Counted from the first letter of the stretch, positions 2,967 through 8,412 are shown. The stretch is 8,412 nt of DNA from a virus (IMGVR_UViG_2690316148_000008); one strand, 5' to 3'. Notes: generated by a model from the sequence alone, not told the origin. Numbers and translations are program-made.

Positions 2967-3623
2967 TTACCTAGTTACCTTTTTTAACTGCCGCTCAGCC
3001 CATGCTTCTTCAATATCAAACCGGGTCACCAGCGCATCATAAAATTTCTTAACTGTTTTTTCCCATGACGCGCGTGTTATCTGGTTTGTCACCTCGCATA
3101 TAGCATTAAATGCCTCCGTTGATGGTAGTCTTTCATAGCCACGACCACCACAACGCTGGCAGTCTCTGATAACAGGCATACCACGTTTTACCGACTCTTC
3201 ACGATGAATGGCGACACCACGCCCACGGCAATCCTTACAGGCGGTGGAAACCTCACCCTTTCCGCCACACTCCGGACAGGCAACTTTTACCACCTCTCTG
3301 ACTTTTTTCCATTCTTCCCAGTAAGACGGATACACACCTTTCGTACACTTTGCCCATACCGGCGGCTTACCATCCGGATACTGGACCTTGTTTGTAAAAA
3401 CTACGCTTTCAATAAATTTTTCCCCATAGCAACAAGGGCACTGCTTTTTACTCGCTGCGCTGCGGGCATAATCCTCAAAAGCGTACGAAGCCATAATGCG
3501 CATCACTACCGGTTTTATTTCTGCCGGAAGTTTTCTCAACGCCGCCACACGATCGCACCGACTGAGTGCATAATCTGCCAGTAATTCTGTTGCCCGCGCC
3601 CTGTCATTCATACTGATGCCCAT
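2967..3623 (-). CDS. Q: Antitermination protein Q, lambda-Q family, copy 1: carries the true C-terminus; the frame stays open upstream to the N at 3650, so it is 5'-truncated at the junction
   Basis: 218-aa ORF with CPCC...CPECGG...CKDCRGRG...CQRCGGRG zinc-ribbon motifs and a C-terminus (YDALV...VTR) resembling lambda Q from memory; followed by a pR'-like promoter. Confidence 0.75.
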   Translation of the reverse strand: MGISMNDRARATELLADYALSRCDRVAALRKLPAEIKPVVMRIMASYAFEDYARSAASKKQCPCCYGEKFIESVVFTNKVQYPDGKPPVWAKCTKGVYPSYWEEWKKVREVVKVACPECGGKGEVSTACKDCRGRGVAIHREESVKRGMPVIRDCQRCGGRGYERLPSTEAFNAICEVTNQITRASWEKTVKKFYDALVTRFDIEEAWAERQLKKVTR

Positions 3624-4257
3624 TTTCCCCAGGAACGCAGAAAACCCCANAATTTCTTAACTGTTTTTTCCCATGACGCGCGTGTTATCTGGTTTGTCAC
3701 CTCGCATATAGCATTAAATGCCTCCGTTGATGGTAGTCTTTCATAGCCACGACCACCACAACGCTGGCAGTCTCTGATAACAGGCATACCACGTTTTACC
3801 GACTCTTCACGATGAATGGCGACACCACGCCCACGGCAATCCTTACAGGCGGTGGAAACCTCACCCTTTCCGCCACACTCCGGACAGGCAACTTTTACCA
3901 CCTCCCTGACTTTTTTCCATTCTTCCCAGTAAGACGGATACACACCTTTCGTACACTTTGCCCATACCGGCGGCTTACCATCCGGATACTGGATCTTGTT
4001 TGTAAAAACCTCGCTTTCAATAAATTTTTTTCCGTGACAGCAGGGGCACTGTTTTTTGCTCGCCGCGCTACGGGCATAATCTTCAAACGCATACGAAGCC
4101 ATAATACGCATCACTGCCGGTTTTATTTCTGCCGGGAGTTTTCTTAACGCCGCCACGCGATCACACCGACTGAGTGCATATTCTGTCAGCAATTCTGTTG
4201 CCCGCTCTCTGTCATTCATACTAATGCCCATTTTCCCAAGGAACGCAGAAACCCCCA
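3043..4257. repeat. Two diverged direct copies of a ~607-bp Q segment (3043-3649 and 3651-4257) joined at a single N (3650)
   Basis: Manual alignment: the two units are near-identical over roughly the first 300 bp (about 1 difference seen) and clearly more divergent over the rest, with substitutions and 1-nt indels. Confidence 0.85.
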
Positions 4258-4396: not shown

Positions 4397-4767
4397 TTTT
4401 TGACCTGCTCTTCATGCATTATGGGGTAAATCTTCACCCCCAGACGTCCACCAGATACTGGCTGACCACGAACGATATTGATTTCATCAAACTGCTCATC
4501 GTCCATTAACACTCCCGCATGTGTCAGTGCATCCAGTGGTGCTTTCAGGATATTGTCCAGGTCACGACGGCGCTTATCCGGTGGCTCTGCAATAATCTTT
4601 ATCGCCAGTCTTCCGGACAGGCTTAATTTCAGTCGCTGCTGACGGACAATAAGCGCCACATCCCGGCGATAACGCTCACCGGCTTTTGATACAAAATATG
4701 TGTTGTCACGACGTCGCCAGTAAGTATTCACCGTCGGCGGATAAGGTAAAATAAACTCATGGCGCAT
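4393..4767 (-). CDS. rusA: Crossover junction endodeoxyribonuclease RusA (Holliday junction resolvase)
   Basis: 124-aa ORF with RusA-like pattern LPYPPTVNTYWRRR...RRRDLDN...SGGR; stop overlaps the Q start (ATGA); start overlaps the stop of the upstream 85-aa ORF. Confidence 0.85.
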   Translation of the reverse strand: MRHEFILPYPPTVNTYWRRRDNTYFVSKAGERYRRDVALIVRQQRLKLSLSGRLAIKIIAEPPDKRRRDLDNILKAPLDALTHAGVLMDDEQFDEINIVRGQPVSGGRLGVKIYPIMHEEQVKK

Positions 4768-5076: not shown

Positions 5077-5143
5077 NNNNNNNNNNNNNNNNNNNNNNNN
5101 NNNNNNNNNNNNNNNNNNNNNNNNNNNNNNNNNNNNNNNNNNN
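5077..5143. other. Assembly gap (67 N)
   Basis: Run of n characters; separates the 5' UTR of the 85-aa ORF from a truncated second rusA copy. Confidence 0.95.
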
Positions 5144-5306
5144 TTCCGGACAGGCTTAATTTCAGCCGCTGCTGGCGAACAATAAGCGCCACTGCCCGGC
5201 GATAACGCTCCCCGGCTTTTGATACAAAATATGTGCTGCCACGACGACGCCAGTAAGTGTTCACCGTCGGCGGGTAAGGTAAAACAAATTCTATGCGCTC
5301 GGTCAT
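5144..5306 (-). pseudogene. rusA: 5' fragment (about 54 codons) of a second, diverged rusA copy, truncated by the N gap
   Basis: Encodes MTERIEFVLPYPPTVNTYWRRRGSTYFVSKAGERYRRAVALIVRQQRLKLSLSG; nucleotide sequence clearly similar to 4610-4767 (roughly 90% by eye); start lies 1 nt after the DUF968 stop. Confidence 0.7.
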
Positions 5307-6711: not shown

Positions 6712-6975
6712 TCACTCATCTTCAAAAGCAGAAAAACCAGCCTTAATCCCAGCTTCTTTCAGAGACGGCAACGATGTGACAAATTCATTTGCACGCGAAA
6801 TAAAACCATCCGTCACAAGCCCATCCACAAAATGAATTAACGCAGCTCCACTCTTCCTTTGTTGAGATTGCAAACATCTAATGCGGCAATGGCTGACAAT
6901 AGCGCCATTCTCAACGCGCACAGTATAGAGGCCATCTTCACTAAAAATTTCACGTAATTCTTCGATTTTCATCAA
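6712..6975 (-). CDS. Hypothetical small protein (87 aa)
   Basis: GGAAGGA Shine-Dalgarno 8 nt upstream; candidate promoter directly upstream; no family recognised. Confidence 0.5.
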   Translation of the reverse strand: MMKIEELREIFSEDGLYTVRVENGAIVSHCRIRCLQSQQRKSGAALIHFVDGLVTDGFISRANEFVTSLPSLKEAGIKAGFSAFEDE

Positions 6976-7053: not shown

Positions 7054-7081
7054 ATTCTATCTGCGAAGGTGCGCGAATCAA
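7054..7081 (-). promoter_or_regulatory. Candidate sigma70 promoter for the 87-aa ORF (-35 TTGATT at 7076-7081, 16-nt spacer, -10 TAGAAT at 7054-7059)
   Basis: Hexamers read on the minus strand about 20 nt downstream of the hok terminator. Confidence 0.45.
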
Positions 7082-7100
7082 ATTCACCGGAAATAAACAA

Positions 7101-7122
7101 CAAAAAACCCGCCGAAGCGGGT
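7101..7122 (-). terminator. Rho-independent terminator of the hok transcript (stem cccgc/gcggg, loop, then UUUUUUGUUGUUUAUUU on the minus strand)
   Basis: Hairpin 7108-7121 and A-run 7102-7107 on plus; about 70-90 nt after the hok stop, matching the usual hok 3' UTR length. Confidence 0.65.
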
Positions 7123-7191
7123 TAAGTGTGGGTGCATTGAGGATGCCTGACCCATCAGAGGTGGCGAGGGATTTCTCCCCCGCCTGGTCTC

Positions 7192-7347
7192 TTACTCCTC
7201 AGGTTCGTAAGCTGTGAAGACAGCGACCTCCGTCTGGCCGGTTCGAATTCGTACCTCGCAGAGGTCTTTCCTCGTTACCAGTGCCGTCACTATGACGGTT
7301 AAACAGATGACGATCAGGGCGATTAACATCGCCTTTTGCTGCTTCAT
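7192..7347 (-). CDS. hokD: Hok/Gef-family membrane toxin (51 aa), HokD/RelF-like; the open frame extends in-frame upstream to an ATG at 7404 (70 aa), which may be a mok-like initiation region
   Basis: MKQQKAMLIALIVICLTVIVTALVTRKDLCEVRIRTGQTEVAVFTAYEPEE matches my recollection of E. coli HokD and the Hok consensus (CLT...TRK.LCE.R); AAGGAG SD 9 nt upstream of the ATG at 7347. Confidence 0.85.
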   Translation of the reverse strand: MKQQKAMLIALIVICLTVIVTALVTRKDLCEVRIRTGQTEVAVFTAYEPEE

Positions 7348-7516
7348 AGCCTGCTTCTCCTTGCCTTTCGGCACGTAAGAGGCTAACCTAGATTTGCCGT
7401 TCATAGATTGAGCCTCAGATTAATGTTAAGCGTCTTGCCGGACGCGTAATGTTAACTGGGGCTTTTCTCTATCTGCCTTTTGGTGTTCATGCCTGAGACA
7501 GATAGCCTCAAGCACC

Positions 7517-7551
7517 CGCTGCAATTCTACTTAACTCTCCTTTTCCCGCAA
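7517..7551 (-). promoter_or_regulatory. Candidate hok promoter (-35 TTGCGG at 7546-7551, 16-nt spacer, -10 TAGAAT at 7524-7529), predicted start near 7517 giving a ~170-nt leader
   Basis: Hexamers read on the minus strand; predicted 5' end coincides with a 12-nt element (7506-7517) complementary to the 3' UTR (7130-7142). Confidence 0.5.
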
Positions 7552-7638
7552 ACCGTTTTTATCCCCAGCGGCAAATCGAATACACCACCAGCGCCACCGC
7601 CATCGCAATTCCTACCGTTGTTAATGCTTCAGGCCAGG

Positions 7639-7983
7639 TCATCGTAAAATATCCTCCACGCTTATCAGTCCGTTCCGCTCCAGATAACTCATCGCCTTAT
7701 CCGGTAATTTGCAGTCTGGCTTCGCTTTCCTCAGTTGCCAGGTTAACTGCTTTACCAGCATGGTTAACTCATCGACCAGACGCTGATATCCCACTGGTTT
7801 GTATTCATGCAATTTACCGGCTGGCTCTGCTGCCAGCGATACCAGTGCGATTTCCAGAACAGCAATATCCATCTTATATGTGCGGATGATGTCATGGTCG
7901 ATTGTGCCCGGTATGCACAGTCTCTGTGCTTCAATAGTCTCCTCTGCGTGAGCTATTAACTGCTCTCTGGTAAAAGTCGTCAT
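7639..7983 (-). CDS. Hypothetical small phage protein (114 aa), translationally coupled to the upstream 55-aa ORF
   Basis: Start ATG overlaps the upstream stop (ATGA); N-terminus resembles the 85-aa ORF at 4767-5024 and its middle ([12 protein letters not shown]) resembles the 55-aa ORF ([11 protein letters not shown]). Confidence 0.55.
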
Positions 7984-8157: not shown

Positions 8158-8412
8158 TTAACCCGCAGTGCTTTCAACTGATGAGGGGAACAAAATCTTT
8201 TCATCAAACCCTGCATTCATATCATGAACAGCAACACACCAATCCATCGACNNNNNNNNNNNNNNNNNNNTCGACGAACGATTATCAAGAGCCTCCATGA
8301 TTTCATCCATGCGGCGTAGGTCATACAGGTAAATGCTTTTATCGCCAATGGTGTAAAAGCCAATTTTTTTCGGTGATGGATGAGGTGTACTGGCAATAGC
8401 GGACACTACCAT
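8158..8412 (-). CDS. Hypothetical protein (84 codons), start ATG at the window edge (may extend beyond); interrupted by a 19-N gap at 8252-8270
   Basis: Open frame MVVSAIASTPHPSPKKIGFYTIGDKSIYLYDLRRMDEIMEALDNRSS...; stop TAA at 8158-8160 overlaps the SD of the next ORF; the first 31 nt are repeated inverted at the left window edge. Confidence 0.4.
   Translation of the reverse strand: MVVSAIASTPHPSPKKIGFYTIGDKSIYLYDLRRMDEIMEALDNRSSXXXXXXXSMDWCVAVHDMNAGFDEKILFPSSVESTAG
8382..8412. repeat. Right arm of 31-bp terminal inverted repeat (partner 1-31)
   Basis: Exact reverse complement of bases 1-31. Confidence 0.9.

Follow-up and report, generated by a model that had tools for sequence, protein, structure and literature searches.

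A complete hok-family type I toxin-antitoxin locus in a lambda-like viral sequence, with counterparts in 933W and Sp5 and a truncated form in Escherichia coli K-12

Is a short gene that carries the name of the K-12 toxin hokD, found in a viral sequence, a toxin locus complete with its own leader and antisense RNA, or does it belong with the relBE-hokD arrangement known from Escherichia coli K-12? We addressed this question in the window, i.e., the whole analysed stretch of 8,412 nucleotides of viral DNA (IMGVR_UViG_2690316148_000008). The coding sequence of the cassette is named 'hokD' in NCBI annotation. A first-pass annotation, made from the sequence alone, had proposed a complete and stand-alone hok locus at 7101-7551 of this stretch, with pairing between the two ends of its mRNA and a possible Sok-like antisense gene. 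Positions 7101-7552 of the minus strand carry a full hok-family type I toxin-antitoxin locus, and we are highly confident that it is an intact hok/mok/sok cassette of the hokW/sokW (intact hokD) subtype, present as an autonomous insert in the nin (early-right) region of a lambdoid prophage. The sequence elements, their predicted folds, their covariation and their homology to known loci could all be established directly for this cassette. It is an already known and ordinary copy of the hok/mok/sok locus carried by E. coli lambda-like prophages; the 933W genome record already annotates the mok/hok/sok cassette, experiments in Sp5 have shown it to be a functional type I toxin-antitoxin system, and most E. 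coli genomes contain a copy.

The nature of the toxin is demonstrated by its peptide, which matches the Pfam Hok/Gef family over the entire profile (PF01848; positions 1-42 of 42; 81.6 bits against a cut-off of 22) and PHROG 251, 'MokW-like host killing' (E = 7.7e-33). The Rfam model RF01794, 'sok', aligns over its full length (model positions 1-157 of 157) to 7517-7342 on the hok-sense strand with 112.4 bits, the gathering score being 59, and its first position falls on G7517, the very nucleotide that had been put forward as the 5' end of the mRNA. The 51-aa Hok, the 170-nt leader (7517-7348), the 3' UTR of about 91 nt and a terminator-like hairpin all lie at the places claimed for them (Table 1), and the full-length leader, the Hok/Gef peptide and a conserved block with sharp edges together bear out the proposal of a complete, stand-alone locus. 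The in-frame upstream ATG pointed out at 7404 does open a 70-aa mok-like frame, which overlaps hok and has its own Shine-Dalgarno sequence upstream of it; coupling of the two frames is predicted. This ATG (7404-7402) is invariant among 71 distinct homologous sequences, while its flanks vary. A 12-codon mini-ORF that had also been noticed in the leader exists (7490-7452, MNTKRQIEKSPS) but is not conserved, as a 1-nt deletion breaks its frame in 933W and column 7481 is variable; we rejected it as a gene, and it is probably not one. Within Hok, the codon of Tyr47 is UAC followed by G (GCUUACGAAC; 7206-7209, minus strand), i.e., the editing motif is intact. According to a recent survey, the hokC, hokD and hokE mRNAs are subject to TadA A-to-I editing, by which the corresponding Tyr becomes the Cys required for a disulfide (bioRxiv 10.1101/2025.08.07.668861).

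Table 1. Positions in the window of the elements of the hok/mok/sok cassette
Feature	Position	Strand	Remarks
Candidate hok promoter -35, TTTGCG / TTGCGG	~7546-7552	-	Putative; partly conserved in 71 distinct homologous loci
hok promoter -10, TAGAAT	7524-7529	-	6 nt upstream of G7517; column entropy ~0-0.6; TSS predicted
Predicted full-length hok mRNA, ~417 nt	7101-7517	-	5' end at RF01794 position 1; 3' end at hairpin and T-run
tac (translational activator), GGGUGCUUGAGG	7506-7517	-	Partner is fbi in the full-length fold, ucb once the 3' end is removed
ucb / mok anti-SD, AAGCCCCAG	7456-7464	-	Agrees with the RF01794 consensus structure
mok Shine-Dalgarno, GAGG	7413-7416	-	Read from the sequence; 8 nt before the mok ATG
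mok-like ORF, 70 aa	7192-7404	-	In frame with hok and containing it; from the ORF list
dcb (downstream complementary box), AGCCUCU	7378-7384	-	Fold-based
hok Shine-Dalgarno region, GGAGAAGC	7353-7360	-	Paired with dcb in the full-length fold; 7353-7359 unpaired in the truncated fold
hok toxin gene, 51 aa + stop	7192-7347	-	ATG at 7347; protein identical to K-12 HokD
fbi (fold-back inhibition), CCUCAAUGCACCC	7130-7142	-	Pairs with tac, U7136 bulged
hok mRNA intrinsic terminator	7101-7123	-	Hairpin 7123-7106 of 7 pairs, 5 of them G-C, then TTTTGTTGTT
Sok promoter, TTGCCT, 17 nt, TAACCT	7361-7389	+	Single exact match in the window, 0 expected by chance
Predicted Sok antisense RNA, 71 nt	7396-7466	+	Coordinates transferred by alignment from the 933W sokW misc_RNA

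The promoter proposed for hok is weak by consensus: its -10 hexamer is conserved, but its -35 is poor, and a generic consensus promoter scan did not call the hok promoter. Both the hok and the Sok promoters are poor relative to the consensus, with about 3 of 6 matches in their weaker hexamers. At the other end of the transcript, folding of the mRNA 3' end confirmed the terminator hairpin. In Rfam, the hok 3' UTR (7102-7183, minus strand) also resembled IsrK, an Hfq-binding sRNA of Salmonella, at a score below the threshold (31.3 bits against 50; E = 9e-4), and a match of the same UTR to rsmX was likewise under the Rfam gathering score; IsrK may be related to hok 3' ends. Two features border the cassette. 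Directly past the hok terminator, and upstream of a rem-like ORF (6712-6975), lies a promoter-like site (TTGATT, 16 nt, TAGAAT; 9 of 12 matches) at 7054-7081 on the minus strand. On the upstream side, a 27-aa hydrophobic ORF (7559-7642, minus strand) overlaps the stop of an upstream 114-aa ORF (ATGA) and stops 6 nt short of the hok -35; its first 16 nt (ATGACCTGGCCTGAAG) are matched by an Sp5 cloning primer of Takada et al., and a PHROG search with this ORF gave no match.

A central claim of the first-pass annotation was that the 5' end of the mRNA (7506-7517) is complementary, with a 1-nt bulge, to a segment of its 3' UTR (7130-7142). When 7101-7517 of the minus strand was folded, the minimum-energy structure contained exactly this pairing, G7517-G7506 with C7130-C7142 base for base, i.e., 12 bases on either side with U7136 bulged; the fold reached -168.5 kcal/mol (z = -6.5), and none of 100 shuffled sequences folded as well. 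The complementarity might nonetheless be a chance match and the leader an ordinary 5' UTR, as only 12 bp are involved and 2 of 200 shuffled 3' UTRs reached the energy of the duplex between the 14-nt 5' end and the 3' UTR; taken from one sequence alone, the predicted tac-fbi pairing is suggestive rather than decisive. An RNAduplex search of the 120-nt upstream against the downstream flanks produced long spurious duplexes, and it was replaced by the comparison of the 14-nt tac with the 3' UTR and its shuffles.

We therefore compared 53 genomic hok loci from Escherichia, Shigella, Kluyvera, Citrobacter, Pseudocitrobacter, Photorhabdus, Pantoea and others, together with hokB, an intact hokC, an Atlantibacter plasmid copy and 933W. 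Two R1-type plasmid loci, in which the leader is IS150-disrupted or rearranged, were used for fbi only, and the Atlantibacter plasmid, hokB and the intact hokC stood in as tac references. Wherever a tac-like 5' end and an intact 3' UTR were present, the best partner lay 45-56 nt past the stop codon, and an fbi-like complement was found at this distance in the Escherichia, Kluyvera, Citrobacter, Photorhabdus and Pantoea homologues. Across 22 distinct 5'+3' pairs, whose fbi segments were chosen by a duplex search that is biased towards pairing (the constant position is independent of this choice), standard pairs made up 96.2% of cells, whereas sliding the partner by 1-3 columns as a control reduced pairing to 33-60%. 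Compensatory changes on both sides were seen at 3 of the 12 pairs (18 cells in 22 loci; matched by 0 of 500 shuffles): position 4 changes from U-A to C-G, and positions 11 and 12 change from G-C to A-U. The partners change in step: GGGCGC pairs with GCGCCC in Photorhabdus and Pantoea, where the bulge is absent, and ...GAGA is paired with UCUC... in Kluyvera, Photorhabdus and hokB. With a partner that keeps its distance from the stop in five genera, that covaries with the 5' end at positions 4, 11 and 12, and that is picked by the minimum-energy fold of the whole mRNA, a chance match is hardly credible.

In individual copies one side of this pairing is degenerate or was not found. A K-12-like hokC copy (L022) yielded no fbi-like partner in the duplex search; in MG1655, IS186 ends 20 bp past the hokC stop. 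One copy of the hokD type in E. coli ECMA0423 (CP178302.1; L012) is decayed, with a degenerate 5' end (GACTGCATGTGGC vs GGGTGCTTGAGGC) and an intact fbi, and two other copies in that genome (L011 and L019) keep the tac-fbi pairing.

The predicted folds describe a switch. In the full-length fold, ucb (AGCCCCAG, 7463-7456) covers the mok Shine-Dalgarno region (7411-7418) and dcb (7383-7378) covers that of hok (7360-7353). In the minimum-energy fold of the 3'-truncated RNA (7143-7517, minus strand), tac (7517-7510) pairs with 7458-7464, the mok Shine-Dalgarno sequence forms a hairpin with dcb (7416-7411 with 7379-7384), and that of hok is unpaired. A rearrangement from a closed to an open form on loss of the 3' end is thus predicted on thermodynamic grounds, and the folds match the closed-to-open rearrangement of the R1 hok mRNA (PMC9841398).

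By homology it is near-certain that the hok/mok/sok molecular mechanism would apply at this locus, and we infer the transcripts and their 3' processing on that basis. A weak constitutive promoter would give rise to a stable mRNA of ~417 nt, the 5' end of which (tac) would be locked on the 3' UTR element (fbi); in this closed form ucb would lie over the ribosome-binding site of mok and dcb over that of hok, permitting neither translation nor Sok binding. Slow 3' trimming would take off fbi, whereupon tac would re-pair with ucb, the mok Shine-Dalgarno sequence would be held in a hairpin with dcb, and that of hok would be free. The 71-nt Sok, transcribed over the mok start from the other strand, would bind the processed mRNA via its free 5' tail, block translation of mok, and so of hok, and mark the duplex for RNase III. 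Were Sok synthesis to stop, the unstable Sok would decay and Hok would be made, insert in the inner membrane, and kill or lyse the cell.

The antisense gene that this mechanism calls for had been proposed on the plus strand, with a promoter at 7371-7399. The hexamers quoted for it are right, but the position given was 10 too high (Table 1). This promoter is base-for-base identical to the sokW promoter of 933W/Sp5. In Sp5, the mutagenic primer for the 'pro-less' mutant rewrites exactly this -10; the mutant lost protection against HokW, and sokW given in trans partly restored it (PMC8621323). The predicted Sok covers the mok start, which together with the shared promoter argues for a Sok-like antisense RNA across the upstream ATG, as had been suggested. 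It would begin 8 nt from the mok ATG, the same as in sokW and K-12 sokC, and its predicted fold has a free 5' tail of 14 nt followed by a long hairpin and UUUU (-29.9 kcal/mol; z = -4.9).

The likeness to mokW/hokW/sokW of the Stx2 phage 933W and the Sakai prophage Sp5 (GenBank AF125520; Takada et al. 2021, PMC8621323) extends over the cassette, at ~93% nucleotide identity over 440 nt; query positions 31-471 are 93.0% identical to 933W and VT2-Sakai, and many Stx phages are alike. Promoter, tac, ucb, Sok hairpin, mok, hok and fbi are shared with 933W, mok being 70 aa and in frame, and sokW is annotated in 933W as 71 nt, equal to the Sok predicted here. The two differ in the C-terminus of Hok, ...VFTAYEPEE here and ...VFVDYESEK in 933W HokW (5 residues), in the allele of mok codons 2-5 and the Sok 5' tail (AACGGCAAATC here vs CTGAACACATG in 933W), and past fbi, where 933W has other sequence instead of the terminator hairpin. 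They also differ in location, as in 933W the cassette is found near attR, past the tail genes, whereas the one studied here is in the nin region, between ea22-like ORFs and a rem-like gene, DUF968, rusA and Q.

The Hok protein, on the other hand, is identical to that of K-12 hokD (relF), which sits in the Qin prophage behind relBE, in the arrangement relB-relE-hokD that the first-pass annotation had mentioned. At the nucleotide level K-12 hokD matches 7091-7361 only (97%), i.e., the hok Shine-Dalgarno sequence, the coding sequence, the 3' UTR with fbi and the terminator; it is without anything upstream of ~7361, i.e., the hok promoter, tac, ucb, mok start, dcb, Sok promoter and Sok, and relBE occupies the leader's place. 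Because the homology is confined to 7091-7361, with relBE upstream of it in K-12, K-12 hokD is the truncated form and that of the window the intact one. The locus studied here is not of the K-12 relBE-hokD type, as its leader is present and relBE is absent from the window. It had been considered beforehand that a relBE-type context might have been lost by a simple deletion, leaving a non-functional promoter; this does not apply, since it is K-12 that has the truncated derivative. The downstream neighbours are nevertheless common to both, i.e., rem(-like), a small ORF and the DUF968 gene ydfU. A Hok 100% identical to the one here is also encoded by a locus with a leader of the truncated K-12 type (L013), and this truncated type accounts for only 3 among 80 IMG/VR loci with identical Hok.

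The same element order and predicted switch (tac/fbi, ucb, dcb, mok, Sok) recur in R1 hok/sok and in hokC/sokC and hokB/sokB of K-12, and the RF01794 leader model is common to the R1, hokC and hokB loci and the locus here. Comparison with these three systems, which had been named as a check on the claim, shows that tac-fbi covaries between them and the window and that the Sok geometry matches sokC. The R1 tac is GGCGCUU, the R1-type fbi is AAGCGCC, and the R1 Hok query is 52 aa. Here mok is in frame with hok, as in the annotated mokC and mokW, whereas mokB is annotated in another frame. Compared with the Rfam consensus, the Sok terminator hairpin carries ~16 extra nt in the window and in 933W. 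HokW and R1 Hok are 44% identical (PMC8621323).

A copy covering at least 80% of the cassette is held by 3908 of 5426 complete E. coli genomes (~72%), with a median of 2 and a maximum of 10 places per genome, and identity to other E. coli phages and genomes reaches 97-98%. Column entropy over 71 distinct sequences delimits a conserved block (~7103-7530) that has sharp borders and is variable on both sides, and the same cassette occurs between flanks of at least 27 types upstream and 16 downstream. This variety of upstream flanks, together with a window free of relBE, sustains the earlier claim that the locus is autonomous, and the cassette behaves like a moron, as an autonomous unit. Its neighbours are all encoded on the same strand as hok and are genes typical of the early-right region of a lambdoid prophage; among them are ea22-like ORFs, a DUF968/HNH gene, RusA, a Q-like antiterminator, a DNA methyltransferase, three tRNA genes and an STnc100 match. 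The ORFs upstream of hok had no Pfam match and matched PHROGs of unknown function. Relative to its flanking genes, hok is co-oriented in all three annotated contexts; a longest-open-frame orientation test in the 480-590-nt flanks was noisy and miscalled the relE flank.

Some features of the remaining window are recorded here in their own right. The prophage tRNA genes are Met-CAT (probably of the ileZ type), Arg-TCG and Arg-TCT, a set that we take to resemble the one downstream of Q in Stx-type lambdoid phages, and immediately downstream of them the Rfam model of the sRNA STnc100 is matched over its full length (133.6 bits); STnc100 and the tRNA genes occupy 780-969 and 1046-1295 on the minus strand. 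Runs of N at 3650, 5077-5143 and 8252-8270 adjoin duplicated segments. There is an exact repeat of 300 nt (3043-3342 = 3651-3950) inside two tandem Q-antiterminator ORFs, and a rusA repeat of 155 nt, 90% identical (4611-4765 and 5144-5298). These repeats beside the N runs suggest scaffolding, or similar prophage copies joined wrongly, more than genuine tandem genes.

The one role demonstrated for the closest relative, hokW-sokW in Sp5, is to speed lysis and raise phage release ~2-fold when the prophage is induced. There, HokW arrests growth and sokW RNA neutralises it, in part through RNase III and Hfq; after mitomycin C the sokW RNA vanishes and the hokW mRNA persists, and HokW is then found in the inner membrane in a RecA-dependent manner, ~1 h before endolysin (PMC8621323). 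Deletion of hokW-sokW makes growth arrest ~40 min later and halves phage release, while normal growth is unaffected (PMC8621323). By analogy, our best guess is that the cassette would serve as an induction-coupled helper of lysis and phage release; this role, and toxicity in the present context, we infer from the Sp5 system. Given the 5 C-terminal differences in Hok and the other place in the phage genome, the Sp5 role may not transfer.

Prophage stabilisation or phage exclusion is a possible role as well, and the first-pass annotation had suggested that the locus could be an active post-segregational-killing or phage-exclusion module. On this reading its main function would be defence or addiction, by abortive infection against superinfecting phages or by killing of cells that lose the prophage, and not help with lysis. 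R1 hok/sok lowers T4 plating (cited in PMC8621323) and hok genes are ~4-fold enriched in prophages (bioRxiv 10.1101/2025.08.07.668861), but in a large survey hok was not enriched beside defence systems (bioRxiv 10.1101/2025.08.07.668861), and the effect measured in the closest relative concerns induced lysis and phage yield (PMC8621323); we consider defence or addiction as the main role to be rather doubtful. A different possibility is that the locus, for all its intact looks, is a physiologically silent passenger relic, transcribed but held in permanent repression, or else never switched on. For hokA, hokB and hokC at their native chromosomal sites, neither post-segregational killing nor a rifampicin response is reported to occur (cited in bioRxiv 10.1101/2025.08.07.668861), from which it follows that an intact-looking locus can be physiologically quiet, and degenerate copies of the cassette do exist, e.g., L012 with its mutated tac and the K-12 type without the whole leader. 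Here, however, every regulatory element is present and, in contrast to the flanks, conserved in 71 distinct sequences, an invariant mok ATG inside a hypervariable patch argues for selection, and the close homologue hokW-sokW is active. A silent relic is accordingly quite improbable.

The cassette may also be a sensor of induction or excision, placed so that N-antiterminated early transcription crosses hok sense-wise only on induction. Read-through here would come from PR through nin, and in 933W it may come from PL across attP after excision. In 933W (AF125520), the PL operon (N ... xis, int) has its end at attL, and hokW and the genes between it and attR lie on the strand of that operon. Once the excised genome has circularised, leftward antiterminated transcription could consequently pass over attP and enter hokW in the sense direction, against the sokW promoter, and may account for the reported disappearance of sokW RNA on induction. 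Sense read-through of this kind would occlude the Sok promoter and could thereby explain why sokW RNA is lost in a RecA-dependent manner.

Within the otherwise conserved cassette, 7391-7411 is hypervariable (both strands; entropy up to 1.8 bits). This patch comprises the Sok 5' tail and its target, mok codons 2-5, and it occurs as 21 alleles among 86 loci, 80 of which had been chosen for their identical Hok protein; the GAGGC/GCCUC stem that flanks it is fixed, as is the mok ATG. Alleles of the Sok tail differ in 7 of 8 within-genome pairs, but random pairs differ 91% of the time, so that the within-genome figure is no sign as yet of selection against cross-reactivity. The patch could give each prophage its own Sok-target specificity, allowing up to 10 copies per genome without cross-neutralising. 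The reading with these two features beyond the textbook picture, i.e., private antidotes through the Sok-tail patch and a sensor of induction or excision, is in our judgement unlikely.

As a discovery, the cassette matters little. Genome annotation names the coding sequence yet leaves mok, Sok and the RNA elements unmarked, and the element-by-element coordinate map given here is reusable for annotation. The comparison also provides clear documentation that K-12 hokD is a 5'-truncated form of this cassette, and the Sok-tail patch could be a modest lead on the coexistence of many hok/sok copies per cell.
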